Shown here: in pieces, positions 1,729 to 24,282 of the stretch
How positions within the stretch are numbered: position 1 is the stretch's first letter
Layout: each line of letters starts with the position of its first letter
NCBI GenBank assembly: GCA_038562595.1
Contig: JBCFBH010000001.1
Span: forward strand, 36,093 to 100,092
Direction of reading: 5' to 3'
Source of the DNA: Anaerolineaceae bacterium
GTDB taxonomy: Bacteria > Chloroflexota > Anaerolineae > Anaerolineales > Anaerolineaceae
Length of the DNA stretch: 64,000 nt
The notes under the pieces: generated by a model
Database searches by the model: none
Seen by the model: only the letters and a program-made list of their open reading frames with translations
What the model was told of the DNA's origin: nothing
Translations under genes and position numbers: made by a program

Positions 1729-1773
1729 CACAAGACAACGAAGACAGAGTATGCGAGCGGCACCACAGGAGGT

Positions 1774-3171
1774 GTGATGAAATTTATCGAGAAAATAGAG
1801 AAAGCGGCAGAAAAGAATCACAGCCTGCTCATCATTGGATTGGACCCACAGGAGGAATTCCTGCCCGGAACCGGGGATATCTTTACGCGCCTGACGGATT
1901 GGGGCAAAGCGATTATCGAACTGACCAGCGACCAGGTATGCGGGTACAAGCCCAACATTGCCTTCTACGAACAATATGGACCCTCCGGGCTGCGCGCTCT
2001 GCAGGAAACTATCCGCGCCATCCCGGCGGACATTCCGGTGCTGCTGGACGCCAAGCGCGGAGACATTGGTTCCACCGCACAAGCCTACACCCGCGCGGCA
2101 TACGAACAATTCCAAGCGGATGCCGTCACGCTCAGCCCCTACCTTGGGCAGGACAGCATCAAACCTTTCCTCACGGAGCCGGATAAGTTTGTTTTTATCC
2201 TGTGCCAGACCTCCAACCCCTCCGCGAACGAAATTCAGGGCTACGGCACGCCGCCGCTGTACGAGTACATCGCCCGCGTCAGCCAGAATTGGGGCTCGCC
2301 AGATCAGGTCGGGCTGGTCATCGGGGCAACACAGCCCGAAGCGCTGCAGCGCGTGCGCGCGATTTGCCCGGATGCCTGGTTTTTGGCGCCGGGAGTCGGG
2401 GCGCAGGGCGCGGACCTGAGGACTGCCCTCACAGCCGGGCTGCGCGCGGATAAAAAAGGGGTTCTCGTGCCTGTTTCCCGCGCAGTAATCGCAGCGGAAT
2501 CTCCGCGCAAAGCCGCGGAAACGCTGCGCACCCAAATTAATACGGTCATCGCGGAAATCTCTCCCAGCCCGCTTGACCCTCTCCACGCGCTTGTGAACGG
2601 CCTGTTCTCAACCGGCTGCGTGAAATTTGGTAATTTCACGCTGGCATCTGGCAAGCAATCCCCGGTGTATCTTGATTTGCGCCGCCTGGTTTCTTACCCG
2701 GACGTATTGGACATGGCAGTGGAGGCCTATATCGACCGCTTAATCCCTCTCGATTTTGATTGTCTTGCCGGCGTCCCTTACGCCGCGCTGCCAATAGCAG
2801 CCATTGCTGCTTCCCGCTTGAAGCGCCCGATGGTCTACCCGCGCAAGGAAACTAAAACGCACGGCACCTCACAAATGGTGGAAGGGGTTTTTCAACAGGG
2901 GCAGCAGGCAGTGCTTCTGGAAGATGTTATCACCAGCGGTGGAAGCATTCAGACAGCTGCCGAGACGCTTTCATCCGCGGGTTTACAGGTGCGGGACGCT
3001 GTCGTGCTGGTGGACCGGGAACAAGGCGGCGTAAGCGCGCTCGCGCAGCAGGGGATTCAGGTGCATGCCGTGCTCACCATGCGTCAAATTTTGACCCGCC
3101 TGGAAAAACAGGACCTCATTGACCAGAGCACCTATCAGGAAGTCAGACGTTACCTGGACGGGGAAGCATGA
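1774..3171 (+). CDS. pyrF: bifunctional OMP decarboxylase (type 2) / orotate phosphoribosyltransferase fusion
   Basis: 465 aa. N-terminal half: [24 protein letters not shown] (PyrF type 2). C-terminal half: [19 protein letters not shown] and PRPP loop [11 protein letters not shown] (PyrE). SD AGGAGG at 1767-1772. ATG at 1777 is an alternative start. Confidence 0.9.
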
Positions 3172-4097
3172 CCGAATCAACGCTCTCCTGCGGGTTTCTC
3201 GGCCTGACCTTGCGGAACCCTCTCGTGCTGGCGTCCGGGATTCTGGGCACCAGCGCCAGCCTCCTGGAAAGGGTAGCCCGGGAAGGCGCGGGGGCAGTGA
3301 CTGCTAAAAGTTGCGGCCCGGAACCCAGGGAAGGGCACCCCAATCCGGTGGCATTAGCCTGGCAGGGCGGGGTCATTAACGCGATCGGTCTGACCAACCC
3401 CGGCGCGCCTGAGGAAGTTCCGCTTCTGCGGGCAGCCAAAAAGCGGCTTGCCGCGCTGGGAGTGCCGGTGTTCGCCAGCATCTTTGCCCCCACCACCGAA
3501 CAGTTTGGTGAGGTAGCACGCGTTATCGCCGAGGCGGAACCGGACCTGATTGAGGTCAACATCTCCTGCCCGAATGTCGCCAGTGAGTTTGGCACGCCGT
3601 TCTCGGCTTCAGCCGAAAGCGCGGCGGAGGTCACCCGCGCGGTGCGGAGAGCGGTCAGCCTGCCCATCAGCATCAAGCTGGCGCCCAACGTCTCCAATAT
3701 CGGACAGATTGCCAGGGCGGTTGCAGAAGAAGGCGCGGACGCTATTACCGCGATTAATACCATGCCCGCCATGCTGATTGACGCGGCAGCCGGCAAACCA
3801 GTTCTGTACAACCGCAGCGGCGGACTTTCCGGGCCCGCGCTCAAACCCATCGCGCTGCGCTGCGTGTACGAAATTGCCCGGTCTGTTCCCCTGCCGATTA
3901 TTGGCACCGGCGGAATCACTACAGGTACAGATGCCGCGGAGATGCTCATGGCCGGGGCCAGCCTGGTAGGAATTGGCTCCGCGGTCTGGCAGGATGGACC
4001 GGAGACTTTTGTCAGAATTAGCGTAGAACTGCTGGCTTTTATGCAGGCAGCCGGGTATGAATCAGTCGGGGCGCTGCGTGGGAAGGCGCTTAAATGA
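3168..4097 (+). CDS. pyrD: dihydroorotate dehydrogenase, class 1B catalytic subunit
   Basis: 309 aa. Motifs GLTNPG, NISCPN, GGITTG. ATGA overlap with the upstream gene. Confidence 0.9.
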
Positions 4098-4849
4098 GCC
4101 AGAAGGGTCTCTTTTCCTCATTTCGGGTTCATGCCGTCCGGCGTGAAAACCCTCATACCTGCACAATTTATCTGAATACCCACCTGGATGCCTTCCCGGG
4201 GCAATTTGTGATGGCATGGCTGCCTGGTATAGGGGAAAAACCTTTCAGTATCAGCGGGAATGACCCGCTGACGCTGACCGTGTGCGAGGTCGGCCCGCTC
4301 AGCCGCGCCCTCTGCCAGCTAAAAGCTGGAGACCTCTTGTGGCTGCGCGGACCACTGGGGAGAGGCTTCGAATTGGTCGGCCGGGCGCATATTCTGGTTG
4401 GCGGGGGCTACGGAGCCGCGCCGCTGAACTTTCTGGCAAAACAAGCCCGCGATCTGGGGCATGACGTAAGAGTTTGTCTTGGGGCAAAGACACGGTCTGA
4501 CTTGATTTTGGTGGATGCGTTCCGGGAATTGGGCTGCGAGGTCCTTTTGGCCACAGAAGACGGCAGCGTCGGTGAGCAGGGCTTGGTCAGCCTGCCCTTA
4601 TTGCGTGCCCTGGAGCAGAATCTTGCGGTCGGGGTTTACGCCTGCGGGCCCAGCGGCATGCTGCTGGCAGTCCACCAACTGTGCCGCCGCTTCCGGTTGC
4701 CGACGCAGCTCTCTTTTGAAGCGCTGATTCGCTGTGGGGTAGGCTTGTGCGGCTCGTGCGAGCTGAGCGAGGAGACCTGCAAGCTCCTGGGGGTTCCAGC
4801 TGGCTTTCTGGTCTGTCATGACGGCCCGGTGGTAAGGTCAGGGAGCTGA
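4094..4849 (+). CDS. pyrK: dihydroorotate dehydrogenase electron-transfer subunit
   Basis: 251 aa. FNR-like fold plus C-terminal 2Fe-2S cysteine cluster CGVGLCGSC. 4-nt overlap with pyrD. Confidence 0.85.
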
Positions 4850-5055
4850 GTAAGCAGCGGAATCCATCTCCAATTTATTTTTTTGATGAACCAGCTTCCG
4901 GTAAAACCTACAATAATGGATTTTTCCAGCAATTGCTGAGGTTTTTGTCTGTTTGCAGTACAATTAAGCAGCCGTCGTTTTGTTAGCCGAAAGGAGCAAA
5001 TCTTTCGCAATTGCATTTTTTCCAATCCGTTCACACAATTTAAACAGGAGAAAAG

Positions 5056-6294
5056 ATGAAAAAAGGTTTTTGGCTGTTCAATTTATTCTTGGTCCTTGCG
5101 CTTGTGCTCACCGCCTGCGCCCAGACCCCAGCTGAAACGGAAGCCCCAGCTGTGGACTGCCGCACCCAAACCAGCTCCGAAGCCGTAGGTTCCTACCAGG
5201 TCCCTGCGCCAGTTGAAGGCTGCTACAATGTCGCCTTTGTGTATGTCGGACCGCACGACGACGGTGGTTGGTCCCAGGCGCACGATGTTGGCCGCCAGTA
5301 CGTGGAGCAAACCATGGAAGACGTGCACACCGCTTACGTTGAAAACGTGGCGGAAGGCGCTGACTCGGAGCAGGTTACCCGCTCGCTGGCTCGCAAAGGC
5401 TTCGATGTAATCTTCACCACGTCGTTCGGCTTCATGGATTCCTCCGAAACCGTCGCCAATGAATTCCCGGATGTGGACATCATCCACATCAGCGGTTACA
5501 AAGCCAACGGCGCGAACTTCGGCAACCTGATGGGCGCCATGGAAGACATCAAGTACCTGGCTGGCATGCTGGCCGGCTCCCGCGCCAAACTGGACGGAAA
5601 CCCCAAGCTGGGTTACATGGCTACCTTCCCAATCCCCGAAGAGCTCCGCCTGGGCAACGCTTTCGCCCTTGGCGCGCAGAAGACCTGCCCGGAATGCACG
5701 ATTGACGTGCGCTTCATCAACACCTGGCACGATCCCATCCTCGAGCAGGAAGGCGCAAAGTCGCTCTTTGACGCTGGCGCTCAGGTCGTCATGACCGGCG
5801 CGGACACCCCCGCCCCCGCCCTGGCCGCCCCCGCTGGAAAATGGGGCATCACTTACGACTATATCGGCAACTGCACGCTGGATACCTGCCTGACCTCCAT
5901 GTACTGGAACTGGGGCGTGATCTATGCCGATATTGTGGATAAATCCCGCGCCGGCACCTGGAAGGGCGGCTGGGAATACTTCGATGCCGATTCAGGCGGG
6001 CTTGGTCTGTATGGCTTCATGGAAGGCGAGACAATGATGCCCGGCGTGGCTGAGCTTCCGGAAGCAGACCTGCAGCTGGTACGTGAAACCCTGGATAAGA
6101 TGCTCAAGGGAGAATTCACCCGCTTTGATGTCTTCAAAGGTCCAATTACTGATAATCAGGGCAATCTGATCCTCGCCGACGGCGTCAGCATGGAACAGCT
6201 TGACCTGGACGGGTTCAAACAGTTCGGCAGCGAATGCAAGACCTGCATGTACTGGTGGAACGAAAACATCACCGCGGAACTGCCCGACTTGTAA
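5056..6294 (+). CDS. BMP-family (PnrA/Med-like) ABC substrate-binding lipoprotein, probably for nucleosides
   Basis: 412 aa. Signal peptide with lipobox LVLTAC. BMP-like core (VAFVYVGPHDDGGWSQAH). Followed by a matching ATPase and two permeases. Confidence 0.85.
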   Translation: MKKGFWLFNLFLVLALVLTACAQTPAETEAPAVDCRTQTSSEAVGSYQVPAPVEGCYNVAFVYVGPHDDGGWSQAHDVGRQYVEQTMEDVHTAYVENVAEGADSEQVTRSLARKGFDVIFTTSFGFMDSSETVANEFPDVDIIHISGYKANGANFGNLMGAMEDIKYLAGMLAGSRAKLDGNPKLGYMATFPIPEELRLGNAFALGAQKTCPECTIDVRFINTWHDPILEQEGAKSLFDAGAQVVMTGADTPAPALAAPAGKWGITYDYIGNCTLDTCLTSMYWNWGVIYADIVDKSRAGTWKGGWEYFDADSGGLGLYGFMEGETMMPGVAELPEADLQLVRETLDKMLKGEFTRFDVFKGPITDNQGNLILADGVSMEQLDLDGFKQFGSECKTCMYWWNENITAELPDL

Positions 6295-6416: not shown

Positions 6417-7952
6417 ATGACAACCACACCCGAGGAAAAAATTAATGCAGTGGAAATGCGCGATATTGTGCTGCGCTTTCCGGGCGTGCTTGCCAATGAC
6501 CACGTCAATTTCACGCTCAGGCGCGGCGAAATTCACGCCCTGTTAGGAGAAAACGGCGCGGGCAAAAGCACGCTGATGAACATTCTTGCCGGGCTATATA
6601 AACCAGAATCCGGCACAATCAGAATAAACGGGGAGCGCGTGGCGCTGAACTCCCCGCGGGACGCGATCAATCGCGGCGTTGGAATGGTTCACCAACATTT
6701 CATGCTTGTCCCGACTCAGACTGTCACCGAGAATATCCTGCTTGGTCTGGATGAACCCGGCTTCGTCATGCGTTTACCGCGCTACGACCAGAAAGTGGCG
6801 GATTTGGCTGAAAAATACGGGCTTAAAGTGCAGCCCACTGCCAAAATCTGGCAGCTTTCAGTGGGAGAGCAGCAGCGCGTCGAAATCCTGAAGACCCTTT
6901 ATCGCGGAGCCGAAATCCTGATCCTGGACGAGCCGACAGCTGTACTGGCTCCGCAGGAAATCCAGGAACTGATGGACACACTCCGTCTGATGATCCAGCA
7001 AGGGAAGTCCATTGTTTTCATCAGCCATAAGCTGAACGAAGTAAAACAGGTGGCGGACCGGCTGACGGTGTTGCGCAAAGGCAAAGTAACCGCAGACGGG
7101 ATCAACCTTGAAGATGTAAACAAAGAGACCCTGGCTGAACTGATGGTCGGCCGGAAAGTAATTTTTCAGTTAAACAAAAAACCCCACACGCCGGGAGAGG
7201 TCGTTCTGGACGTGCAGAACGTGTCCGCGCTCAATAAACGCGGTTTGCCGGCGCTAAAAAACATCTCTTTACAGCTTCGCGAAGGCGAAATCCTTGGCAT
7301 CGCCGGGATCGCCGGCAACGGACAGAGCGAATTGGCGGAAGTCATCACGGGTCTGCGTTCCTGCCAGGGAAAAATCCTGGTTAATTGCCAGGATGTTGCC
7401 AATCAATCCCCAAAACGGGCGATTGACCAGGGCACCGCGCATATTCCGGAAGACCGCACAGGTGTGGGAACCGCACCCGGCATGGCGCTCACCGGCAACA
7501 TGATTATGAAATCCTACGACCGCGCCCCGATCAGTCAGAACTGGCGCATCAGCTATACCGCTGCCCGGGAATTTGCCAGTAATCTCAAAGAAAAATACGA
7601 CATTCAGGCGCCCAGCCTTACCACGCAGGTCAACAAACTTTCGGGTGGGAACCTGCAAAAAGTCATCCTTGCCCGGGAAATTTCCTGCGGACCCAAATTG
7701 ATTGTGGCGGTGCAGCCTACCCGTGGGCTGGACGTGGGCGCGATTGAAGGCATACAGAACCTGCTGCTGGAACAACGCGATAACGGCGCCGCCGTGTTGC
7801 TCATTTCCGAGGAACTGGACGAACTGCTCGACTTATCTGACCGGATCGCGGTAATTTTTGAGGGCGAACTTGTGGGCGAATTTCCTGCGGCGGAGGCTGA
7901 TTTGAAAACAATCGGATTGATGATGACCGGGGAATACAGGAGGCAGGAATGA
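6417..7952 (+). CDS. ABC transporter ATP-binding protein with two fused ABC cassettes
   Basis: 511 aa. Walker A GENGAGKST. Signatures LSVGEQQR and LSGGNLQK. Walker B ILILDEPT. Confidence 0.9.
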   Translation: MTTTPEEKINAVEMRDIVLRFPGVLANDHVNFTLRRGEIHALLGENGAGKSTLMNILAGLYKPESGTIRINGERVALNSPRDAINRGVGMVHQHFMLVPTQTVTENILLGLDEPGFVMRLPRYDQKVADLAEKYGLKVQPTAKIWQLSVGEQQRVEILKTLYRGAEILILDEPTAVLAPQEIQELMDTLRLMIQQGKSIVFISHKLNEVKQVADRLTVLRKGKVTADGINLEDVNKETLAELMVGRKVIFQLNKKPHTPGEVVLDVQNVSALNKRGLPALKNISLQLREGEILGIAGIAGNGQSELAEVITGLRSCQGKILVNCQDVANQSPKRAIDQGTAHIPEDRTGVGTAPGMALTGNMIMKSYDRAPISQNWRISYTAAREFASNLKEKYDIQAPSLTTQVNKLSGGNLQKVILAREISCGPKLIVAVQPTRGLDVGAIEGIQNLLLEQRDNGAAVLLISEELDELLDLSDRIAVIFEGELVGEFPAAEADLKTIGLMMTGEYRRQE

Positions 7953-9058
7953 GCGCGCCATACCGCCTGCGCATCCAAAAACGTACAGAGGACGTCCCGC
8001 GCTGGCTGCCTCTGGCTACTTCAGTCGGCGCAATCGTGCTGGCGTTCCTCATCAGCGGTCTAATCCTCCTGTTGATTGGAGGGGATCCAATCAAGACTTT
8101 CGGGTACTTTTTCAATGCGGCCTTCGGCAGTTGGGGAGCCCTTTCGGATGTGGTGGTAAAAGCCACGCCGCTGCTGCTGATAGGTCTGGGCTGCGGGCTG
8201 GCGTTCCGCATGCGCCTTTGGAACATCGGCGCGGAAGGTCAGTTTTACATAGGCGCTTTTTTTGCCAGTCTGGTGCCCTTGGTGCCGCTGGTGAACATGC
8301 AAACGACCCCAAAATTCGTGATTCTGCTCATGATGGCTCTGCTTGGAATGCTGGGCGGCGGATTATATGGCTTCATCCCTGGCTGGTTGAAAGCCAAGTT
8401 CAATGTAAGTGAGATTATTTCCACGCTGATGCTCAACTATGTGGCTGTATTTTGGAATAATTACTGGATTTACAGCGAATTTAGCGACGCCGGCTTCCAG
8501 ATGACGCCAATGTTCGAAAAGTCTGCCTGGCTGCCGCGCCTATCGGATTATGCCCGGGAAGTGCCAGCTTTCTCCGGCATCACGCTGCACCTCGGGGTAG
8601 TCTTTGGGCTGGTAGCCGCGCTCATTATCTGGATCATCATCACCCGCAGCCGCTGGGGCTACGAAATCAACCTAATCGGTGATAACCCGCAGGCTGCCCG
8701 CTATGCTGGCATCGATATTACGCGCAATGTGATCCTGGTGTTCATGGTCTCTGGCGCCTTAGCAGGCTTGGCGGGTATGTCCGAGGTTAGCGGCGTAGTT
8801 CACCGCCTGCAGGAACGCATTTCGACCAACTACGGCTTTTCCGGCGTGATTGTAGCCTGGCTGGCAAAACTTAACCCCTTTGCCACCATCCTGGTTTCAT
8901 TCCTGTTTGGGGCGCTGATCGTCGCCGGGAGGGAAATCCAACCCTCGGGTCTTTACTTCTTCATCCAGGGAACGATCCTATTCCTGGTGATCAGCAGTGA
9001 CGTATTCCTGCGCTACAAAATTGAGCTGTTACGCACGGCTCCGGAGGCAGCAAATTGA
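7949..9058 (+). CDS. ABC transporter permease
   Basis: 369 aa, polytopic. 4-nt overlap with the ATPase gene. Confidence 0.85.
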   Translation: MSAPYRLRIQKRTEDVPRWLPLATSVGAIVLAFLISGLILLLIGGDPIKTFGYFFNAAFGSWGALSDVVVKATPLLLIGLGCGLAFRMRLWNIGAEGQFYIGAFFASLVPLVPLVNMQTTPKFVILLMMALLGMLGGGLYGFIPGWLKAKFNVSEIISTLMLNYVAVFWNNYWIYSEFSDAGFQMTPMFEKSAWLPRLSDYAREVPAFSGITLHLGVVFGLVAALIIWIIITRSRWGYEINLIGDNPQAARYAGIDITRNVILVFMVSGALAGLAGMSEVSGVVHRLQERISTNYGFSGVIVAWLAKLNPFATILVSFLFGALIVAGREIQPSGLYFFIQGTILFLVISSDVFLRYKIELLRTAPEAAN

Positions 9059-10017
9059 GCCTGGAAATCATTCTCAGATCCGGTCTGTCCACAGGGACAA
9101 TTCTACTGTTCGCGGCAATCGGAGAAATCCTGACAGAGCTTGCCGGCATACAAAACCTTGGAGTGGAAGGCATGATGCTGCTCGGCGCGATGGCGGCTTT
9201 CAAGACTTCCCTGGCAACAGGCAGCCCCTGGCTGGGCTTGCTCGTGGGCATCGCCGCGGGCGGGCTGCTCAGCCTTGCCCATGCTCTGGTGACCATCCAT
9301 TTCCAGGCTGACCAGGTGGTCAGCGGCCTGTCGCTTACCTTTTTGGGTACCGGGCTGGCGCTCGTTCTGGGCGAGGGCCTGACCGGGCAAAACGCGCCGC
9401 TCATTCCCAGCCTGACTGTTCCCGTTCTTTCCAGAATTCCATGGATAGGGAAGGTTTTCTTTTCTGATTTGAACCTGCTGGTGTATCTTGGATATTTACT
9501 GATACCTATTGCGTGGTGGTACATCAACAAAACCCGCCCGGGGATGCACCTGCGCGCGGTAGGGGAGAAGCCTGCCGCGGCAGACAGCCTGGGCATTAAT
9601 GTCTACGGGGTGCGTTACCTATACACCTTTATGGGCGGCTGCCTGGCCGGTTTGGCGGGCGCGGCAATCAGCATCGCGATATCTCCCGGCTGGTACAGCA
9701 GCCTGACTACGTCCGGTCAGGGCTGGATCGCGGTGGCGCTGGTTATCTTTGCGCAGTGGAACCCGCTTAGGGCTGCCATGGGCGGCTACTTATTTGGCAT
9801 GCTGCGCCGCTTTATGCTCGACTTGCAAGGCCCAATGCTCCTGCTCGGGATGCGCAATCCATTCTTTTACAACCACAACCTGGTTTTCTTCCTGCAGATG
9901 ATGCCGTTTCTGCTGACGATTATCGCCCTGGTGTGGGGCTCCGCGTCCGCGCGCAGACAGCGCATTGGAGCACCTGGCGCGCTCGGTATCCCATATATCC
10001 GTGGGGAGAGGGACTGA
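9055..10017 (+). CDS. ABC transporter permease
   Basis: 320 aa, polytopic. TTGA start/stop overlap with the preceding permease gene. Confidence 0.85.
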   Translation: MSLEIILRSGLSTGTILLFAAIGEILTELAGIQNLGVEGMMLLGAMAAFKTSLATGSPWLGLLVGIAAGGLLSLAHALVTIHFQADQVVSGLSLTFLGTGLALVLGEGLTGQNAPLIPSLTVPVLSRIPWIGKVFFSDLNLLVYLGYLLIPIAWWYINKTRPGMHLRAVGEKPAAADSLGINVYGVRYLYTFMGGCLAGLAGAAISIAISPGWYSSLTTSGQGWIAVALVIFAQWNPLRAAMGGYLFGMLRRFMLDLQGPMLLLGMRNPFFYNHNLVFFLQMMPFLLTIIALVWGSASARRQRIGAPGALGIPYIRGERD

Positions 10018-10917: not shown

Positions 10918-13422
10918 TTACAGCGGCGGAGTGCCAAGCCTGACCTCGACGTAGACTTCCTCAGGCGCTCCGGATGGAACCGGAATAAGCGTTCCCTGGA
11001 TTTCCTTGCCGTCCACGCGCAGCTTACAGGCGTTGCCCGCGCCTACACGGATGACATTGATCAGATAGCGCGTTCCGCGGAACTCGCGCACTGCCTGAAA
11101 ACTCTGCCAAGCTTCCGGGATGACAGGCTGCACGCGCAGCCCATTGAATTCCGGTCGGATGCCCAGGATGTGCTGGGTAATTGCCGCGAAGTTCCAGGAG
11201 GCGGTGCCGGTGAGCCAGGAATTTTTAGCCTCGCCGTGGGTCGGAGCATCCTTGCCGGCGATCATCTGAGCGTAGACATAGGGCTCACAGCGGTGGACCT
11301 CACTGATCTGTTCGCGAGCTGAGGGGCATATGCGAGTGTAATAATCAAAAGCGCGGTCTCCTCTGCCAATTTTGGTTTCGGCAATCATGATCCAGGGGTT
11401 GTTGTGGCAAAAAATTCCGGCATTTTCCTTGTATCCAGGCGGATATGTGGATATTTCCCCTAATTTCAATTCATAGTGGGTATATGCGGGCTGTAAAATG
11501 ACAATCCCGTGAGGGGTTGCCAGGCGCTCCGCGACAGAATCAAGTGCGGCTTGCGCCTTGCCGTCCTCCACGCCCAAACCCGCCATCACGCATATGCCCT
11601 GTGGTTCAATAAAGATCTGCCCTTCAGGGTTCACGCTTGAACCCACCGGCTCGCCAAAGGCATCGTACGCGCGGCGGAACCAGGCGCCATCCCAACCAGC
11701 GGCCCATACCGCGGCTTCCATCAGGCGCGCTTTTTCGCGGTAGAAATCCGCGGGCTGTTGGAAAAAGCCGGGGTTCTCCAAGCGGTGCAACTCGGCAAGC
11801 TGCACCATATCCTGGGCGGCCAGCACAAACAGCCCGGCTATGAACACGCTCTCGGCGACCGTTCCTTCCTGGTTGGTGGTCGTCTGAAAAGATTGACCTG
11901 GAGTGTCCGAGAAACAGTTCAGGTTCAGGCAGTCATTCCAGTCCGCGCGTCCAATCAGCGGCAGCCCGTGCGGGCCGAGCGCGTTCAGAGTGTATTGCAT
12001 GGAGCGCTGCAGATGCTCGTAAAGCGGCATTTCGGAGCCGGGCTGGTTTTCATACTGTACGAGCGCATCCAGAATAGAAGTATCCCCGGTTTCCTTCACA
12101 TACGCGGAAGTGCCCAAAACCAACCAGAGTGGGTCGTCGTTGAAGCCGGACCCAACATCGTTGTTGCCGCGCTTGGTCAGGGGTTGGTACTGGTGGAATG
12201 CGCCGCCGTTTTGCAGTTGCGTGGCAGCTAATTCCAGGATGCGCTCGCGCGAACGTTCGGGGACCAGGTGCACAAAACCCAGCAGGTCCTGGTTGGAATC
12301 TCTGAAGCCCATCCCTCGCCCGATGCCGGATTCAAAATAGCTCGCGGAGCGGCTCATGTTGAAGGTGACCATGCACTGGTACGCGTTCCAGATATTGACC
12401 ATGCGGTTTGTGTGCGGGTCTGGGGTGTGCACCTGGAACTTTGATAGCAAGCGTTCCCAGTCAGCTTTGAGTTCAGCGAAGGCAGTGTCCACGCTTTGGG
12501 GCTGCAGGTAGCGTTGTAAAATGGGCAAGACGCTGTCTTTTTTGATGGTTTGCGAACCAGGCTGCGCGAATTTATCCGCCGGGTCATTTTCATGATAGCC
12601 CAACAGGAAGATGATTCTGCGCATTTCGCCAGGCTGCAGTTGCAGCCTCAGATGATGGGAGCCGATTGGCTGCCATCCGTGCGCCTCTGAGTTGGAAGAT
12701 TCACCGCGCTCCACCGCGACGGGGTCATCCCAGCCGCGGTAAGCCCCGAGGAAGTCCTCGCGCTGGGTGTCAAAACCCGCCAGCGGTTCGGAGCACGCGA
12801 AAAACGCGAAGTGGTTTCGCCTTTCCCGGTATTCCGTCTTATGGAAGATGGTTCCTGCCAGAGCTCCGTTTATGGCGTCATCTCTCTTTGGGATTTCAAC
12901 TTCGCCGGTGTTGAAGTTGCGCTGAAAATTGGTCCGGTCATCCCAGGCGTCCCACAGCGCAAATTCAACAGCTGAAAACAGGCTGAGTTCTGCCGGCGTC
13001 TCGCGTTGGTTCGTGAGCGTGAGGTCCCAGACTTCCAGAGCGGCATCCAAGGGCACAAAGAACTTGATGCTTGTTTCAATTCCCGCGGACTTTGAGCGTA
13101 TCTGGGTGTAGCCAAGCCCATGCCGGCATTCATAAGCGTCGAGTTGGGTGCGCATCGGCATCCACCCGGCGGACCAGCGCTGACCGTTCTCGTCATCGCG
13201 CAGGTAAAGGTAGCGCCCGCCCATATCCAACGGGGCGTTGTTGTAGCGGTAGCGCGTAATCCTGCGCAGACGGGCATCTTTGTAAAAGCAGTAACCGCCG
13301 CCTGTGTTGCTAATCAGACTGTAAAAATCGCGGCTGCCAAGGTAATTAATCCAGGGTAAAGGGGTATCCGGTCTGGTAATGACATATTCCCGGGCTTTGT
13401 CGTCAAAAAATCCGTAGTGCAT
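10918..13422 (-). CDS. GH94 glycoside phosphorylase (cellobiose/chitobiose phosphorylase family)
   Basis: 834 aa. N-terminus MHYGFFDDKAREYVITRPDTPLPWINYLG matches the conserved start of cellobiose phosphorylases. The size is typical of the family. Confidence 0.9.
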   Translation of the reverse strand: MHYGFFDDKAREYVITRPDTPLPWINYLGSRDFYSLISNTGGGYCFYKDARLRRITRYRYNNAPLDMGGRYLYLRDDENGQRWSAGWMPMRTQLDAYECRHGLGYTQIRSKSAGIETSIKFFVPLDAALEVWDLTLTNQRETPAELSLFSAVEFALWDAWDDRTNFQRNFNTGEVEIPKRDDAINGALAGTIFHKTEYRERRNHFAFFACSEPLAGFDTQREDFLGAYRGWDDPVAVERGESSNSEAHGWQPIGSHHLRLQLQPGEMRRIIFLLGYHENDPADKFAQPGSQTIKKDSVLPILQRYLQPQSVDTAFAELKADWERLLSKFQVHTPDPHTNRMVNIWNAYQCMVTFNMSRSASYFESGIGRGMGFRDSNQDLLGFVHLVPERSRERILELAATQLQNGGAFHQYQPLTKRGNNDVGSGFNDDPLWLVLGTSAYVKETGDTSILDALVQYENQPGSEMPLYEHLQRSMQYTLNALGPHGLPLIGRADWNDCLNLNCFSDTPGQSFQTTTNQEGTVAESVFIAGLFVLAAQDMVQLAELHRLENPGFFQQPADFYREKARLMEAAVWAAGWDGAWFRRAYDAFGEPVGSSVNPEGQIFIEPQGICVMAGLGVEDGKAQAALDSVAERLATPHGIVILQPAYTHYELKLGEISTYPPGYKENAGIFCHNNPWIMIAETKIGRGDRAFDYYTRICPSAREQISEVHRCEPYVYAQMIAGKDAPTHGEAKNSWLTGTASWNFAAITQHILGIRPEFNGLRVQPVIPEAWQSFQAVREFRGTRYLINVIRVGAGNACKLRVDGKEIQGTLIPVPSGAPEEVYVEVRLGTPPL

Positions 13423-18727: not shown

Positions 18728-20899
18728 TTAAGCCTCAGCAATGCCCAGTATATCAATGGTGCGTTGGAGCAGCTGAGCGCGCGTTCTGGTATCGGAGGAA
18801 GAAGCCAAAAGCGCTTCCAGGTCATCCGCGCCCGCGGCAGCCAACGGGCTTCTGCCGATGTAACCGGCTTGAATGCGCTGGCGCTCGCCCCAGAGGAGTT
18901 CAGCCAGCACCGGCGCATTCAGTGCCGCCAGACGTTCAGCGGACCCGCCGGCACCATTCATAGTCTCGAGTGTGCGGCTGACAGCAAAACTCAGCGGGCT
19001 GTGGATGGACTTGGTCAGACAACCGTGGATTAACCAGGTCAGGAAGTGATTGCGGGAAGGTGGAGGCAGGATGCGCTCTCTGAGCGCTGGATTCACTCTG
19101 GCAAGGAGCGCTTCCACATCCCAACCATCATCCAAAAAATAACCCACCACCCTGTTTTGTTCCTGCGACGCTGGTATTTCGCACGTTTGTGTATCTGGTT
19201 GGATGGTGTTTTTAGGGAAAATCGCAGAATCTTTGAGTCTAAAAAGTATCTTAATTATCGTATCAAATTGACAAATTTCCGCGTCAACCAATGTCTCAAA
19301 ATGACAATTAAGACTGTCCGCCAAAGTATCAAAATGACAAATTTGTTCCGCTTCTAAGGTCTCAAACTGACAAATACCCTGGGAGACTAAAGTCTCATAA
19401 TGACAAATTCGCCTGGCGTCCAGCCGCAATGCGCCGCGGAGGAGCTGGGCATAGCGCGTGTCAGAAGAAAAAGCCTGTAAAGCCAGGCGTTGTTCAGCGC
19501 TTGCTTCACTGAGCAAGAAGGCATACATGGCGCCCTTCAGAAGTTCGTCGGAGGCAGTAAGGCGAACCTCTTCCACGCGCAGCTGCCAATCCAAGCCAGC
19601 GGCGTTTGAACGGGTAGCAACCCGGCAAAGATATTGGCTGGCAAGCTGGCGGTTTGCTTCGCGCCACTCACGGGCGTATTCAGTACCAGGGTTTACTTCT
19701 TGCTTACGCGGACGACCGCGAGCGCTTTGTTTTAGGTGAGGAATGCGTCCGGGCAGCGTTTCGGAGCGGATCCACTTCTGCAGGGTTGGCAATCCGCCCG
19801 GTACCCAAAATGTGTTGCGGTCCTTTCCGCGCGCCCAGTCAATATAGCAGCAATTCTTGCTCATAAGGTAGAGCATACCCAAATCCGCGCCGAGGTCCGG
19901 TAAGACGCGGTGAAACCAGTACCACGGTACAGCCAGAAAACTTTCAGGTCGGATAAGATGCGCTGCCAACCGGTCGCATAATCCGGCCAAAGCCGGAGTG
20001 AGGCGGGAATCGCCCAGGGCTGCCTGCAAAACTTCGTGTACTGACGCGGCTGTCGAAAAAATGTCGTCCTTCGAAGGGTCCGGGGTGCGGTAGGGGAACA
20101 CAAGCATATGGTCGCGAGGTGTCTCCAGCGCCTTTTTGATGGTGCCAGCTGGGTCTGCGCTGAGACCTGCTTCAAGCAGCCAGCGGTAGAGATCCTGCGC
20201 GTCTCCAGGGGTCAGCAGGAGTCCGCGGTAGGTGTAGGTGTTTGCCTGGCGCACAATCTTACCGTTCACAAAGCGGTGGACAGGTTCCGCGCGGTGCACG
20301 AACCAATCCAATGCGCCGCTTTTGAAGACGCGGAAGAAAGTAGCGCGACTGATAACACGCCCGAGCATATTCAGAAGACCTTCCACGTCAATTGTTACCG
20401 CGTCACCCAGGCGGGGGTAGAGTTGGTCCGCGCCGTGTTCGCGGGAGCGTCGGTAAAAAGCTTGCCTGAGCGCGCTGGCAATCAGGACCGCGTTGGACCC
20501 TACAAAGGGAACAAAACGCAGCAGATAGGCGGGAATGGCGGCAATCGATTCGGGCGCGAGGATTGCCTCCGAGACATCTGAGGCGCCAAATTCAAGCGTC
20601 AGAGCACCATCTTCTGCGGCTTCAGACGCGGTAGGAAACGGTGATAGACCGGGAAGTGTGCCCATGGGCACAGTAGGGCTCATCGTCAGACGGAATTCCT
20701 TGCCGGTCAAATCCTGTACGACGGTTTCAATCAATGGATAATAACGGCAAAGACTGGCGTAGACCATTGGAGGGGCGCTGAGCTGATAGCTGCCGTTGTA
20801 GCTGACGCTGGCGGAATCAAGCAAATGGGCTAAAGCCGCGTCTTGCTTGGCGGCCAAAACCGCCTGGATATCCGACCACGCATTTACTTCAGAATTCAT
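18728..20899 (-). CDS. large protein of unknown function containing five 11-aa ICxFETL repeats (possible initiator-like DNA-binding protein)
   Basis: 723-aa uninterrupted ORF co-directional with the upstream AAA ATPase gene. No catalytic motif recognised. Repeats ICHYETLVSQG/ICQFETLEAEQ/ICHFDTLADSL/NCHFETLVDAE/ICQFDTIIKIL. Confidence 0.75.
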   Translation of the reverse strand: MNSEVNAWSDIQAVLAAKQDAALAHLLDSASVSYNGSYQLSAPPMVYASLCRYYPLIETVVQDLTGKEFRLTMSPTVPMGTLPGLSPFPTASEAAEDGALTLEFGASDVSEAILAPESIAAIPAYLLRFVPFVGSNAVLIASALRQAFYRRSREHGADQLYPRLGDAVTIDVEGLLNMLGRVISRATFFRVFKSGALDWFVHRAEPVHRFVNGKIVRQANTYTYRGLLLTPGDAQDLYRWLLEAGLSADPAGTIKKALETPRDHMLVFPYRTPDPSKDDIFSTAASVHEVLQAALGDSRLTPALAGLCDRLAAHLIRPESFLAVPWYWFHRVLPDLGADLGMLYLMSKNCCYIDWARGKDRNTFWVPGGLPTLQKWIRSETLPGRIPHLKQSARGRPRKQEVNPGTEYAREWREANRQLASQYLCRVATRSNAAGLDWQLRVEEVRLTASDELLKGAMYAFLLSEASAEQRLALQAFSSDTRYAQLLRGALRLDARRICHYETLVSQGICQFETLEAEQICHFDTLADSLNCHFETLVDAEICQFDTIIKILFRLKDSAIFPKNTIQPDTQTCEIPASQEQNRVVGYFLDDGWDVEALLARVNPALRERILPPPSRNHFLTWLIHGCLTKSIHSPLSFAVSRTLETMNGAGGSAERLAALNAPVLAELLWGERQRIQAGYIGRSPLAAAGADDLEALLASSSDTRTRAQLLQRTIDILGIAEA
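19260..19409 (+). repeat. five copies of the 18-bp motif GTMTCAWAHTGACAAWTW at exact 33-bp spacing, inside the 723-aa gene
   Basis: Copies start at 19260, 19293, 19326, 19359 and 19392. Core TGTC-N7-GACA dyad in three of the five copies; copies 1 and 3 read GTATC. Confidence 0.85.
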
Positions 20900-21015
20900 T
20901 CGTTGCCTTTGAAACGCAATCTCGTATCGCTGAAAATGCGAAAGACTGCGGGTGTGACCGTGAACCGATTAAATAGATTTGTCTCCACAAACTCTTCCCA
21001 TCAAAGGAAACGCTA

Positions 21016-21819
21016 TCAGCTGCGCGGAGCCAACTCAGGAATGAACAGATGGTTTTTCCTTGTTTCAATCTGTTCTTCCAGATAAGCGCTTGCCAGCGCT
21101 AAGGCGTTTGTGAGTGAACCCCTGGCCTGGTCAGCAATGCTCAGGGCGGCTTGTTCAGGCAGTAGAGCCATGGGATCGGAAGCCCCGGCCATTCTGAGGC
21201 GGGCGTACAGTAAGCTGGCAACTTCCTGCGTTCCGGGCGCGCGGAAGGGAACATAAAGACCAAGGAATTGGTTGAGACTGCCGATATTGCTGGTGGTATT
21301 GTTCAGATCCTGCAGGAATATCAAGGTGCGGATTTTCTTGGTGTGTTCCACCGACCAGGAAAGCAATTGGGTGAGGTATTCCTGGTCCACCGGCGGACCA
21401 TCCAGCACAAGCAGAAGTTCGTCATTGTGTTCATCCAGATACTCAAAAATGCTTTCAATGCGATTGGCGTTAGAGCGCGCGGAAGGGAGACCTAAGGTTT
21501 CGACGATCGCCATTAAGAAGTGGCGGGGTTCCGTTACTGTGTTGGTGTTCATGTACAGACCCAATACCGAGGCGCGCACGCTGGCAAGGTAGCGGGCGGC
21601 TGCGGCTTTCATCGCCAGCATGCTTTTACCGCTGCCTACCGCCCCGGCAATAACACCCAGGTTCTTGGAGGGATCTTTCTGATCCAGGATAAAGCTGGAG
21701 GCAACCTCCAGAACCCGCCGCTGCTCGTGAATCAAGGGATAAAAGAAACGGGTGTCCGGGTAGTGTAGAAACGGGTGTTCAAGCAAACCAGCAGAAAGCA
21801 GATCCAAAGTTGAAAGCAT
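21016..21819 (-). CDS. AAA_22/ExeA-like P-loop ATPase with atypical Walker B
   Basis: Walker A GAVGSGKS. Walker B-like LLLVLDGPP (no acidic residue after the Asp). Start taken at the second Met (SD AAGGAG 8 nt upstream). The ORF-track start is 21855. Confidence 0.75.
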   Translation of the reverse strand: MLSTLDLLSAGLLEHPFLHYPDTRFFYPLIHEQRRVLEVASSFILDQKDPSKNLGVIAGAVGSGKSMLAMKAAAARYLASVRASVLGLYMNTNTVTEPRHFLMAIVETLGLPSARSNANRIESIFEYLDEHNDELLLVLDGPPVDQEYLTQLLSWSVEHTKKIRTLIFLQDLNNTTSNIGSLNQFLGLYVPFRAPGTQEVASLLYARLRMAGASDPMALLPEQAALSIADQARGSLTNALALASAYLEEQIETRKNHLFIPELAPRS

Positions 21820-21941
21820 GGGCGGCGCTCCTTGTATGTATAAATAGGTTAGCATGCGCGTTGAATTAAGTCAAGTGCTTAATATTATCCACCCACTTTA
21901 CGTAACTGACAAGTTTATTCAAACAAATAAGAAAGAGTAAC

Positions 21942-21969
21942 TTGTAAAGAACAGAAAATAATGTAAAAT
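21942..21969 (+). promoter_or_regulatory. candidate sigma70-type promoter of parA
   Basis: TTGTAA-N16-TAAAAT in the AT-rich divergent intergenic region. It overlaps the first ATG of the ORF-track ORF, which supports the 22013 start. Confidence 0.4.
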
Positions 21970-22012
21970 GTACACAAGCATTTATTTTTCAGACAAGGAG
22001 CGCGGAGCGCCG

Positions 22013-22843
22013 ATGGCAATTATATCTCTGATTAACCGTAAGGGTGGAGTGGGAAAATCCACCATCAGCATCAACCTGGCGGCAGGCTTAGCGATTTATG
22101 AATCCCGCAAAGCCATTCATAAGCCGGTGCTGCTGATCGATATGGATGACCAATTAAGCGCGACAATCACCGCAATGGGTGGTGGTTTGGATGACCAGTT
22201 TGTGCCCATGATCACTGCCGAAAACAACTTTCCAAACGCGCTTGGAAATGGATACGGGGCTTCAGATACGCTCATCAATGACTCCCTGCTGCCGCGCAAA
22301 CGCGAGGAAAAAGTGCGCATCTTCCGCACGAACAAGACGCGCATGGAAGGCCTGGAAGCCGCCCTGAAAACCCGGGAAGACCCTGCTTTTCAACTGACCT
22401 ATTTCCTGGAATCCATCAAGGATGAGTATTCCTACATCATCATCGATAACCCCCCTTCGGCCGGGATTGTGCCAATGAACTCGTTGGTGGCGAGCACGCA
22501 CGTCTTAATCCCAATTGAACCGGACGGATTGAGTTTGATTGGCCTGGCAGATATTCTGCGCATGATTGAAGGCGTCCACAAAAACACCAACCCGGACTTA
22601 AAGATTCTGGGAATTATTCCTTCGCGCTTTCGCATGATCCGCCGTCAATCGCGCGACGTTATCGAGGATATGGAAAGGATGTACGGCCACCTGCTGCTGC
22701 CCTACATCAAGGACCTGGCGGAAATCTCCGCGGCGACCACATCTGGTTACGATATCTTTTCGTATTGTCCGGAGAAGTCCCAGGCTTACCGCTGCTTCTC
22801 CAATCTGGTGGATGCAGTTATGGGCAAGCTCGGCGAGGCATAG
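22013..22843 (+). CDS. parA: ParA-family partition ATPase
   Basis: Deviant Walker A NRKGGVGKST right after the start. GGAG 5 nt upstream of ATG 22013. Confidence 0.9.
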   Translation: MAIISLINRKGGVGKSTISINLAAGLAIYESRKAIHKPVLLIDMDDQLSATITAMGGGLDDQFVPMITAENNFPNALGNGYGASDTLINDSLLPRKREEKVRIFRTNKTRMEGLEAALKTREDPAFQLTYFLESIKDEYSYIIIDNPPSAGIVPMNSLVASTHVLIPIEPDGLSLIGLADILRMIEGVHKNTNPDLKILGIIPSRFRMIRRQSRDVIEDMERMYGHLLLPYIKDLAEISAATTSGYDIFSYCPEKSQAYRCFSNLVDAVMGKLGEA

Positions 22844-22925
22844 CTGGCGCGGAAAACTCAGCGCGTGTAAATGTGTGCCCATGGGCACAGTACGGGAAAC
22901 GCGAAAAAAGAAAGGAAGCTGAACA

Positions 22926-24068
22926 ATGGCAGAACTCAGGAAAAAAGGTTTTGGAGATCTGATCAACATCACAAGCGATGCTTTTGGGGCAAGCACCGGC
23001 GAAGCAGACACGGCTTTCATGGAAGGCGCGCCTAAAATGGTAAACAACCGCCAGAGCGTCTACCGCGTGCCGCTTTCCATGATCAGACCGGACCGCTTCC
23101 AGGCGCGTTTTATGCTTCCCTACGAACTACGGGAAGATTTCTATTCTCAAAAAGCGGATTGGGCTGAGACAGTGCGGCGCTGGCTAAAGCTGGCTGAGAC
23201 AGATCGCTTGATTCGCCGTGAGATTGACGAACTGATTGCGTTGGGGGATTCGCTGCACGATACCGGACAAATCAAACCAGTCACCGGTCAGGTGGTCAAT
23301 ACCGACGGCAGAGATGTGTTCCAGATGCTGACCGGCGAGCGGCGCTTTTGGGCAACCGCCATAAAGTCCGTGCGTGAGGGGCTTGGCGAGGAACCCTTTG
23401 TACTCGCGCTGATCGATAACCAACCCAGCCTTGAAAAACAAATCGCTGAGAACATGGCTTACAAGGCTCTGACGCCGGTCGGGAAAGCCCGCGCGGCTGC
23501 CCGAATCGTGTTAGAAGCCAATAACATCAAACCGGAAACTTCAGAAGATGAATTTGCTTTCTTCCGTAAAATCAATGAGGTGCGGCTGAGCGATGAGACC
23601 CGCGAAGTCCTGATGAAGACGCTTCAGTTGGAACGCACATATTACGGCCGCCTGATGAAGTTTTTTGAGCTCCCCGAGAACTTGCTTGAAATTTGCGACC
23701 GGGCGGAGATGCCCGAACGCGTGCTGCGGGAGATAGTCTCCTATGACCCCGAATATTGGACCGGCGCGGTTCACTATTACGCGGAACACGAAGGACGCAC
23801 CTACCAGGATGTGCATGCCTTCCTCGAACGGGCAGCCGGCCGGGAGAAACCCCGCGCGGTGCGCTTGCCGGCTGACCCAGCCACCAAATCGGCACGATCC
23901 ATCAAGCGCGTGCTCCTGAATATAGAGGAACTCCCGCAGGATGATAAGATTGGAACCCTCGCGGATGCTTTGATTGGCGAATCAGACAAAGAAGAAGCCG
24001 CGCGTATTGTGACCCATCTGGAACAGCTTACCGCGGCAGTCAGGCAGCGGCTTAACGGTCTGAAATAA
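22926..24068 (+). CDS. parB: ParB-family protein (divergent, with an insertion in the N-terminal domain)
   Basis: 380 aa. ParB/Srx box IRPDRFQARF ... TGERRFWATAI. C-terminal HTH-like LPENLLEICDRAEMPERVLREI. Follows parA. Confidence 0.8.
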   Translation: MAELRKKGFGDLINITSDAFGASTGEADTAFMEGAPKMVNNRQSVYRVPLSMIRPDRFQARFMLPYELREDFYSQKADWAETVRRWLKLAETDRLIRREIDELIALGDSLHDTGQIKPVTGQVVNTDGRDVFQMLTGERRFWATAIKSVREGLGEEPFVLALIDNQPSLEKQIAENMAYKALTPVGKARAAARIVLEANNIKPETSEDEFAFFRKINEVRLSDETREVLMKTLQLERTYYGRLMKFFELPENLLEICDRAEMPERVLREIVSYDPEYWTGAVHYYAEHEGRTYQDVHAFLERAAGREKPRAVRLPADPATKSARSIKRVLLNIEELPQDDKIGTLADALIGESDKEEAARIVTHLEQLTAAVRQRLNGLK

Positions 24069-24091
24069 GCTGAACTTCGCCTGCATTTTCT

Positions 24092-24125
24092 CCGCGTCGG
24101 GAGTTTTCCCGGCGCGGTTATTTTT
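24092..24125 (+). terminator. rho-independent terminator of parB
   Basis: ccgcgtcggg-agtttt-cccggcgcgg (10 bp with one G-U pair) followed by ttattttt. Confidence 0.65.
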
Positions 24126-24264
24126 GAGAAAGAATCCAACGAAAAACCGACCTCTATCAGGAAAACGAAGCCCCTGCAAGAAAAACTTTCGGTAACGGAG
24201 TGAAGTTTTCTAATTTCTAATTCGCAACGGTATTGCGCGTAGGTATATTCTTGTGTGCTCTAAT

Positions 24265-24282
24265 GTCTCAAAATGACAAATT
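24265..24282 (+). promoter_or_regulatory. isolated non-coding copy of the 18-bp motif (GTCTCAAAATGACAAATT)
   Basis: Matches the consensus of the five intragenic copies, in the same orientation. Lies 140 nt past the parB terminator. No ORF covers it. Confidence 0.6.

Follow-up and report, generated by a model that had tools for sequence, protein, structure and literature searches.

Genes and proteins of the cassette

Our analysis deals with four genes in a 64-kb stretch of DNA from an Anaerolineaceae bacterium (the window, meaning the whole stretch that was analysed). Two gene pairs diverge here from a short AT-rich region. On the minus strand are encoded an ATPase and, downstream of it, a 723-aa protein that we call BIG (18728-20899), and on the plus strand ParA and a 380-aa ParB (22926-24068). 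An earlier sequence-only reading of this DNA had placed these four genes, and all four open reading frames (ORFs) were found there. For two of them the likely gene is shorter than the ORF. The ATPase ORF covers 21016-21855 and the ParA ORF 21968-22843, and because homology to the relatives begins only at Met13 and Met16, respectively, with a GGAG-type ribosome-binding site before each, we set the start sites to 21819 (ATPase, minus strand, 21016-21819, 267 aa as given before) and 22013 (ParA, plus strand, 22013-22843, 276 aa). These starts leave a divergent region of 193 nt (21820-22012) with 38% G+C compared to 55% for the window, which matches the AT-rich region of about 190 nt described earlier. 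The parAB pair is followed by an intrinsic terminator (24092-24117, plus strand) with an 11-pair stem and a T run.

The same arrangement was found in many related genomes. When one genome of each GTDB species was scanned, 66 loci were obtained, nearly all of them in Anaerolineaceae metagenome-assembled genomes (MAGs) of digesters and bioreactors. The order ParB<ParA<>ATPase>BIG was present in 57 of the 66 loci, i.e. in all whose contig spans four genes; co-occurrence of the four genes had been named as a check by the sequence-only reading, and the cassette was complete in these 57. Identities across loci are 75-95% for ParA, 61-91% for ParB, 55-91% for the ATPase and 41-82% for BIG. The outer flanks differ between loci, with manC often found downstream of BIG, and the longest contigs carrying a module of the window type measure 166 kb (GTDB) and 138 kb (metagenomes). 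The cassette is conserved in the Anaerolineaceae clade and, in a diverged form, across Anaerolineae. Two short contigs binned as Saccharibacteria (L007) and Bathyarchaeia (L013) carry an Anaerolineaceae cassette and are probably mis-binned. Near-identical cassette copies on separate contigs of one MAG (L009 and L012) probably reflect a strain mixture.

The earlier description of a ParA accompanied by an atypical, divergent ParB held up. ParA is a standard small Walker-type partition ATPase: it contains the deviant Walker A motif NRKGGVGKST, in agreement with the KGGxxK[ST] signature, and scores above the cut-off for the Pfam families AAA_31 (E 3e-35), CbiA and ParA. The single ParB sequence stays below the Pfam ParB_N cut-off (20.1 bits vs 26.3), and the ParB profile matches Noc and Spo0J, with E values of 2e-7 to 4e-5. 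The protein keeps the motifs PDRFQAR, GQIKP and LTGERRFWAT as well as a helix-turn-helix (HTH) segment, and these motifs hardly vary, if at all, over 14 sequences. By motif and profile ParB has an N-terminal (CTPase) domain with the GERRxRA box, and a helix-turn-helix.

The ATPase passes Pfam AAA_22 narrowly (28.8 bits). A profile of 13 ATPase sequences (profile A3) found its best matches in the PDB with archaeal Orc1/Cdc6 (2qby_A), along the entire AAA+ domain at E 3e-6, and with Drosophila Cdc6. The NCBIfam Orc1/Cdc6 score of 12.9 lies far from the cut-off of 181, i.e. below membership, and a C-terminal winged helix is absent from the 267-aa protein. Its Walker A motif reads GxxGSGKS and its Walker B motif LVLDG. 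Judged by sequence, the ATPase belongs near the initiator-clade AAA+ proteins (Orc1/Cdc6), yet it is not an Orc1/Cdc6.

BIG had no match in Pfam, NCBIfam, PHROG or PADLOC. It has 149 full-length homologues, none of which is named, and it represents an uncharacterised family. A profile search against 1.8 billion representatives returned 294 remote relatives at 50% clustering, and a second search with 26 distant members gave at least 740 proteins, nearly all flagged PF11638 (DnaA_N). In a Pfam scan five of ten distant members passed the DnaA_N gathering score (33-68 bits), some with two copies. The profile of distant homologues (A2) matched DnaA domain I structures in the PDB at E 7e-16, and the profile of window-type BIG (A1) could be aligned to A2 from end to end, N-terminus included, with an hhalign probability of 100% for the whole alignment. 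Residues 1-73 (20681-20899, minus strand), which align with the DnaA_N columns of A2, are predicted to fold as alpha-alpha-beta-beta-alpha-alpha-beta. Two AlphaFold2 (AF2) models were made, the first from 17 sequences with a poor mean confidence (pLDDT, predicted local distance difference test, 65) and the second from 69 sequences (pLDDT 86). The top Foldseek match of the first model is DnaA domain I (4tps_D; template modelling score 0.62, root-mean-square deviation 2.5 Å, probability 1.0, E 0.24), and the second model shows the topology of DnaA domain I at its N-terminus, with DnaA not among its top 50 Foldseek matches. The A1 profile found nothing useful among PDB sequences. Since the window clade has no direct DnaA_N signal of its own, we call this part of the protein DnaA-domain-I-like and not a proven DnaA_N member. 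The resemblance that had been noticed by eye in the first 70 or so residues was thus recovered in the predicted topology, in one weak fold match and through the distant relatives, and was not recovered by direct matches in Pfam or the PDB.

According to the second AF2 model, BIG consists of the DnaA-domain-I-like N-terminus, two helix/beta-hairpin modules, a repeat region and a helical C-terminal domain. The modules, both of the form helix-helix-beta-hairpin, lie at residues 109-224 and 302-366 and coincide with the two segments that had been taken for winged helices. The fold matches are not significant: phage replication initiators appear among weak Foldseek matches (E 0.09-0.7, probability up to 0.91), and winged-helix arrays of TFIIE and Pol III at E 0.6. 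The position of the two modules stands as proposed, while their identity as winged helices is suggestive only. BIG has no Bac_DnaA or Bac_DnaA_C match and is not a DnaA. Rep_3, RepA_N and RepC matches were also absent from Pfam (and, for RepA_N and RepC, from NCBIfam). With a DnaA-domain-I-like part and neither the ATPase nor domain IV of DnaA, BIG would be an initiator family that is new in this build. An anti-phage defence function of the cassette was also considered and rejected, as the PADLOC models gave no match for any of the four proteins.

Conserved DNA sites in the cassette

The sequence-only reading had noticed an 18-bp motif five times inside the 723-aa gene and once past parB. We find the same six sites, with a core of 17 bp. 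The motif, GTMTCAAAMTGACAAAT, starts at 19260, 19293, 19326, 19359 and 19392, which corresponds to a spacing of 33 bp, and once more at 24265, in a single orientation throughout. Only 0.48 matches would be expected, none of 100 shuffles reached six, and there is no further copy in the 64 kb. The five intragenic copies (19260-19408, minus strand; ATTTGTCAKTTTGAKAC on the sense strand) are iteron-like direct repeats that code for 11-aa ICxFE/DTL repeats. The array has 38% G+C compared to 55.5% for the BIG gene. At the protein level the peptide ICHFETL is conserved and is predicted, with good confidence in the AF2 model, to be helical. Three to five repeats with up to two mismatches occur in nearly every related BIG gene. 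Iterons are recognised as phased direct repeats that co-vary with the initiator, and we count five of them here and lineage-specific arrays in seven other systems. The array adjoins an AT-rich stretch with about 29-30% G+C (19200-19258) in which some synonymous sites are frozen, e.g. ATA at codon 551 (42/42) and AAA at codon 556 (36/36), and which might serve as a DNA-unwinding element.

The sixth, extragenic repeat (24265-24281) is found about 150 nt past the parB terminator, and together with a companion motif, CTAYRCGCA (24234-24242), it forms a site at 24234-24281 on the minus strand. A repeat past parB is present in 47 of 54 loci, 45 times in the same orientation as in BIG and 21 times without mismatch, on a background of 2 matches per 490 kb. 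The companion, CTAYRCGCA(TTAAT), usually lies 20-30 nt from the repeat, in some cases at a distance of over 100 nt or on its other side, and was seen near 34 of 36 extragenic copies detected in a best-match scan that under-reports. The regular-expression scans behind some of the motif counts in this study ran in this mode and under-report imperfect copies; the counts of extragenic repeats were corrected.

A second class of site had been overlooked in the sequence-only reading. The perfect 16-bp palindrome TGTGCCCATGGGCACA has two copies in the window, one inside BIG (20657-20672) and one between parA and parB (22874-22889). The parA-parB position holds a perfect palindrome in 36 of 40 non-redundant loci, and 58 of the 60 loci that hold both parB and BIG contain two to four perfect copies inside the cassette. 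Their places across loci are the parA-parB intergenic region, BIG codons ~73-77 and often a position just past parB; in many loci this third palindrome lies 20-200 nt from the extragenic repeat. No perfect copy was found outside the cassette in the 10-kb flanks of the 60 loci. Palindromic centromere sites are known by their clustering at par genes, as seen here, and from its sequence TGTGCCCATGGGCACA, which differs from canonical parS (TGTTNCACGTGAAACA), appears to be a candidate parS of variant specificity, as on plasmids. Canonical parS itself is absent from the window, as are tRNA genes and, among the ORFs with a Pfam match, integrases, all of which the earlier reading had also reported as absent.

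Constraint on both classes of site acts on the DNA, because synonymous sites are frozen only at the palindrome and the repeat regions. In an alignment of 43 non-redundant BIG genes, synonymous variation is suppressed solely at codons 72-83 and 493-557, with values of 0.6-0.9 compared to a gene-wide mean of 0.19. Within codons 72-83, which read AGT GTG CCC ATG GGC ACA over the palindrome, identical codons are used in 39-41 of 43 genes. The palindrome codes here for a conserved peptide, VPMGT, in a BIG linker (residues 76-97, pLDDT <50) that is otherwise variable and disordered, and for this reason the peptide is most plausibly a consequence of the DNA site. In the repeats the cores TGT CAT TTT GAG are frozen (TGT 40/40, CAT 40/40, GAG 41/41), with adjoining Thr, Leu and Val codons varying freely.

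Further conserved elements became apparent in the divergent region when it was aligned over 40 non-redundant loci. The predicted parA promoter is TTGTAA-N16-TAAAAT (21942-21969, plus strand). The ATPase-BIG promoter (about 21846-21875, minus strand) has TTGACT as -35 and TAACCT as -10 element, with the -35 lying in ACTTGACTTAA (21866-21876, minus strand), which is invariant in 40/40 loci. About 20 nt upstream of this -35 is an imperfect inverted repeat CAGTT-N5/6-AACT (21892-21913, minus strand), the left arm of which, TTGTCAGTT, agrees with the iteron core, and which is a possible autoregulatory operator, perhaps for initiator dimers. GCGCATGCTAA, a sequence akin to CTAYRCGCA, sits in the ATPase-BIG promoter between its -35 and -10 elements. 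A DnaA-box-like 9-mer, TTATCCACC, is present at 21885-21893 as had been noted, and was dropped as a functional DnaA box, being conserved only in the five closest genomes.

Plasmid plas-ZRK and more distant lineages

In a protein search of PLSDB, BIG had a homologue with 28.6% identity (E 1e-47) on plas-ZRK, which is a closed plasmid (CP069395.1, 179.7 kb) of the Chloroflexota strain ZRK35. The genes are ordered as in the window (ParB-N protein < ParA <> 271-aa protein > 739-aa protein), with identities of 40% for ParB, 51% for ParA, 32% between the 271-aa protein and the ATPase and 29% between the 739-aa protein and BIG. Among the 158 annotated features of the plasmid no other rep or par gene is found. 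The BIG gene of plas-ZRK contains five direct repeats at a spacing of 33 bp, the sequence of which is unlike that in the window. The plasmid also has its own 16-bp palindrome, TTTGCCACGTGGCAAA, with the CACGTG centre of canonical parS; three perfect copies and a degenerate one lie just past parB, another, with a single mismatch, is found where the ATPase and BIG genes meet, and none occurs elsewhere on the plasmid.

The cumulative GC skew of plas-ZRK forms a clean V. Its minimum at 106,513 is inside BIG, with a flat bottom (102,984-107,599) that extends from parB through BIG, and its maximum at 18,286 is diametrically opposite. None of 2000 block shuffles reached the observed range. The shift is seen on both strands, as the plus-strand GC skew at third codon positions (GC3 skew) changes from -0.14 to +0.01 for genes on the plus strand and from -0.01 to +0.19 for those on the minus strand. 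Because the skew minimum falls into the cassette, and the shift holds for genes on either strand, GC skew marks the homologous cassette as the probable bidirectional replication origin of plas-ZRK. The only genes common to the window and plas-ZRK are the four cassette genes and generic ABC (ATP-binding cassette) and ferritin genes. The cassette is portable, and the two replicons are not homologous. The cargo of plas-ZRK consists mostly of sugar-transport and catabolic genes, plus a heliorhodopsin. Its skew is unusually clean for a 180-kb plasmid, and the terminus at ~18.3 kb is close to a tyrosine recombinase gene (5.4-6.5 kb).

Loci from two other Anaerolineae lineages (L078 and L068) show the order ParB-like < ParA <> AAA_22 > small ORF > BIG. 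Both possess perfect palindromes of their own, 22-24 bp long, past parB and beside parA, and five to six intragenic repeats each. The same architecture is thereby found in four lineages, with lineage-specific site sequences. Repeat arrays occupy the same place in the gene in distant lineages, and the peptides they encode are entirely different. In the A3 alignment the Walker B motif of the ATPase reads LIDN in plas-ZRK, where as in the window clade the Asp is not followed by an acidic residue, and LLDD in L068.

More distant BIG homologues were found in elements of a different composition. One locus (L077, 4584-12250) encodes a serine recombinase, FtsK and an HTH_17 protein divergent from BIG; a second (L067, 9747-14896) HTH_17, BIG, ParA, a ribbon-helix-helix protein and an integrase; and a third (L079, 8506-16137) ParA, BIG, an integrase and an FtsK-like protein. 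In the first of these, the BIG homologue is immediately preceded by an inverted repeat (9859-9915) whose arms are iteron-like. BIG homologues in integrase/FtsK elements that lack an HTH-ParB keep their intragenic repeats and have no contiguous palindromes. Because the repeats track BIG and the palindromes track ParB, we assign the former to BIG as iterons and the latter to ParB as parS. A 212-kb plasmid of Leptolinea sp. HRD-7, a cultured member of the Anaerolineaceae (AP024711.1, locus L071), encodes, near a Soj-type ParA and a 140-aa gene, a 295-aa protein (7944-8831) with a DnaA_N-like N-terminus that is 47% identical to that of protein P0172. It may be a short form of the BIG initiator type.

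Likely function, alternatives and known systems

We consider the cassette likely to be the working plasmid-type replication and partition system of its replicon, with a candidate origin inside the BIG gene. The sequence-only reading had suggested a plasmid-like replicon-maintenance cassette, and this suggestion gained support from the conserved synteny, the conservation of the motifs at the DNA level, the cassette and skew of plas-ZRK, the DnaA_N domain of distant relatives and the Orc1/Cdc6-like ATPase. ParB, with its CTP-switch motif GERRxxA, would load at the TGTGCCCATGGGCACA palindromes, and ParA would move the ParB-DNA complexes apart. BIG would bind the five phased 17-bp repeats within its own coding sequence, whereupon the AT-rich DNA beside them could be opened. 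Its DnaA-domain-I-like N-terminus would then recruit the replicative helicase or its loader, with the co-transcribed Orc1/Cdc6-like ATPase supplying a nucleotide-dependent step of melting or helicase loading, so that the initiator would in effect be split over two polypeptides, BIG and the ATPase. The sixth repeat past parB and the promoter inverted repeat could serve copy-number control or autoregulation. For the window copy, we infer the pairing of proteins with sites, the place of unwinding, the recruitment of a helicase and the firing of the origin.

The kind of replicon is a separate matter. A pyrimidine biosynthesis operon (pyrB, a pyrF-pyrE fusion, pyrD and pyrK; window 733-4849, plus strand) lies 14 kb from the cassette, and the replicon therefore carries core metabolism genes; pyrB, pyrF/E, pyrD, pyrK, glnA and ccm were counted as core genes on it. 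Even with these genes it could be a chromid rather than the main chromosome, and about half of the likelihood that we give to a working replication and partition system lies on a chromid or megaplasmid.

Several results weigh against this interpretation. As described above, the window clade alone gave no direct DnaA_N match against Pfam or PDB sequences, and a whole-chain Foldseek search of BIG against the PDB and BFVD returned no significant structural relative. The Walker B motif of the window-clade ATPase (LVLDG) lacks the catalytic acidic residue after the Asp, which suggests from the sequence that the protein may bind ATP without efficient hydrolysis. The cumulative skew of the 64-kb window alone shows no clean V. 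For the flanks of the Anaerolineaceae copies, a comparison of GC3 skew that included terms for strand and locus gave a side effect of +0.029 ± 0.009, with the sign that diverging forks would produce. The shift is small; 15 of 20 loci have a positive value (p 0.04), or 13 of 19 (p 0.17) when the conserved flank genes are left out. The PLSDB gene table of plas-ZRK is incomplete; it has no large gaps, and an unlisted rep gene is conceivable. Finally, the repeat resembles one half of its own lineage's palindrome in L078 (TTGGAACA, 8/8; sites at 5866-5887, 7101-7122 and 11408-11588), in L068 (GGTnCG(n)GAAT; 4832-4854, 7178-7200 and 11846-12019) and in plas-ZRK (locus L070; TTTGnnAC; 3923-4249 and 9190-9350). 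This hints that one protein might read repeats and palindromes alike, or that initiator and ParB compete.

If that likeness were taken to its end, palindromes and repeats would be full and half sites of ParB, and BIG and the ATPase an accessory segregation or nucleoid-organising complex. The absence of any recognised Rep family match in BIG would fit such an arrangement. We regard it as very unlikely, since the intragenic repeats are kept where HTH-ParB, or both ParA and ParB, are missing, since BIG homologues take the Rep position in elements with integrase, FtsK and xis, and since plas-ZRK would be left without an annotated initiator even though its GC skew puts the origin at the cassette. 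Initiation is also suggested by the DnaA_N domain and the Orc/Cdc6-like ATPase. A different objection starts from the core genes in the window: an old plasmid or integrative element could have been domesticated in the main chromosome and kept for ParABS segregation and organisation or for regulation by BIG, with replication proceeding from a distant DnaA-oriC and the intragenic repeats having only a regulatory or centromere-accessory role. In favour of this are the weak GC3-skew shift at the cassette, the occurrence of BIG relatives in integrative elements and the ability of DnaA domain I to interact with DnaA itself. Yet neither integrase nor serine recombinase nor FtsK was found within 10 kb in any of the window-type (A1) loci. 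Purifying selection is strong on the four genes and both types of site, including the initiator-specific parts, and an inactive origin is not expected to hold the synonymous sites of five phased repeats constant; we therefore judge a domesticated remnant unlikely.

It is also quite unlikely that the cassette is the sole origin of a DnaA-less main chromosome, i.e. that a plasmid replicon has taken over the chromosome of a free-living bacterium; just as doubtful is what this would entail, that a two-part initiator, made of the DnaA-domain-I/winged-helix protein and the Orc1/Cdc6-like ATPase, replaces DnaA at the repeats of the BIG gene. We searched the 1.9 Mb of loci by tblastn with B. subtilis DnaA, DnaN and Spo0J and E. 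coli RpsL, EF-Tu, RecA and GroEL; the matches were confined to the DnaA_N part of BIG relatives and a single IstB, a result that applies to the loci and makes no statement on whole genomes. Two further explanations have next to no chance in our view. The AAA_22 domain is common to the ATPase and TniB, and the ATPase weakly matches the PHROG entry 'DNA transposition protein' (E 8.5e-5), which would allow a transposition module with the ATPase as TniB/MuB/TnsC-like regulator and BIG as TniQ-like target selector; this was rejected, as the module has no rve/DDE transposase next to it, either in the window or at any of the 66 loci, the place beside manC is kept in the clade, and the best structural-sequence matches of the ATPase are Orc1/Cdc6. 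The conserved and predicted helical ICHFETL peptide, lastly, might be an 11-residue structural repeat, perhaps a Cys/His metal-binding one, with the likeness at the DNA level as its by-product. Such a pure protein feature is already contradicted by the synonymous sites that are frozen in the repeat cores and not around them, by the non-coding copy kept past parB in 47 of 54 loci and by the different peptides that the repeats of distant lineages encode at the same place.

As a working system, the cassette belongs to a known kind, the combined rep/par cassette with an embedded origin, whose parts are new here. Origins that lie within the initiator gene are known from experiment in pSK41, where Rep boxes lie centrally in the rep gene in a part that encodes a dispensable linker (PMC5703833), and in repABC plasmids, where the origin lies in an AT-rich part of repC (PMC3155836). 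The repABC systems, found on alphaproteobacterial plasmids and on chromids or secondary chromosomes, are similar in that ParA (RepA), ParB (RepB), parS and the initiator (RepC) form one compact cassette, in that the origin (a candidate here) is within an AT-rich part of the initiator coding sequence (PMC3155836), and in that site specificity differs from replicon to replicon. They differ in being a single operon, whereas the cassette consists of divergent operons with a dedicated AAA+ ATPase. BIG has no sequence relationship to RepC by Pfam, carries a DnaA-domain-I-like N-terminus unlike RepC and occurs in the phylum Chloroflexota, and its gene has clear phased direct repeats whereas repC of p42d has none. 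In RepA_N replicons of Firmicutes such as pSK41 and pAD1 the initiator binds repeats in the centre of its own gene, in a segment that encodes a linker-like region (PMC5703833). RepA_N proteins are only ~320 aa long and recruit primase by their C-terminal domain, whereas BIG is twice as long, has no RepA_N domain, is of a type with DnaA_N and has an AAA+ ATPase and ParAB as partners. The resemblance to these origin-inside-rep replicons, RepA_N and RepC, is architectural only.

Three other systems share individual traits. At rctB-ori2 of Vibrio chromosome 2 a large initiator without ATPase (RctB 658 aa, BIG 723 aa) is combined with direct-repeat arrays, the rctB gene lies divergent beside a dedicated parA2-parB2, and there are extra control sites outside the minimal origin. 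Vibrio ParB2 cross-talks with the sites of the initiator RctB (review PMC6090056). RctB and BIG have no detectable homology, and BIG differs in its intragenic repeats and its AAA+ partner; no Dam or crtS-type features were seen at the cassette, where no search was aimed at them. With DnaA-oriC the cassette has in common a domain I that is homologous in distant BIG relatives, an AAA+ module of the initiator clade and parS-like sites clustered at the origin (a candidate here). Unlike in DnaA, a second polypeptide contains the AAA+ module, which is nearer to Orc1/Cdc6, domain IV DNA binding is missing, there is no conserved DnaA box, and the parS-like TGTGCCCATGGGCACA is not TGTTNCACGTGAAACA. Distant BIG homologues, with their rep position beside an HTH_17 xis-like protein, FtsK/SpoIIIE and an integrase, recall the actinomycete integrative and conjugative elements (AICEs; int-xis-rep-FtsK/Tra). 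The Rep of AICEs is usually of the rolling-circle or RepSA type and unrelated to BIG, and next to the window copy there is neither an integrase nor xis nor FtsK. New in comparison with all these are the obligatory Orc/Cdc6-like partner, the putative parS specificity and the presence of both site classes in the reading frame of the initiator. In the papers searched we found no description of either motif, of the BIG family, of Chloroflexota DnaA_N proteins, or of dnaA or secondary replicons in Anaerolineae.

If replication and partition are indeed the function of the cassette, BIG would stand for a large and still unnamed family of replication initiators with at least 740 public proteins, and the cassette would probably be what maintains plasmids, chromids and integrative elements of the phylum Chloroflexota, for which hardly any genetic tools exist. 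The ATPase, BIG and the repeats, with or without parABS, could form a minimal replicon and a starting point for a shuttle vector. The mechanism would be unusual, with the helicase-recruiting domain of DnaA on a DNA-binding protein and an Orc/Cdc6-like ATPase acting in trans, and should the replicon turn out to be a main chromosome, it would bear on how universal DnaA is. The invariant 16-mer and the repeat core could be used as metagenome markers of this replicon type, and replication activity could be read from coverage.

As to the surroundings of the cassette, neither the 64-kb window nor 47 related loci contain a tRNA gene, and the window has no Rfam match. No integrase or transposase is present among the window ORFs with a Pfam match, and integrase, recombinase and FtsK queries from the related elements did not match the window. 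A gene for another ATPase, of the AAA_14/DUF4143 type and unrelated to the cassette, lies at window 54448-55662 on the plus strand.

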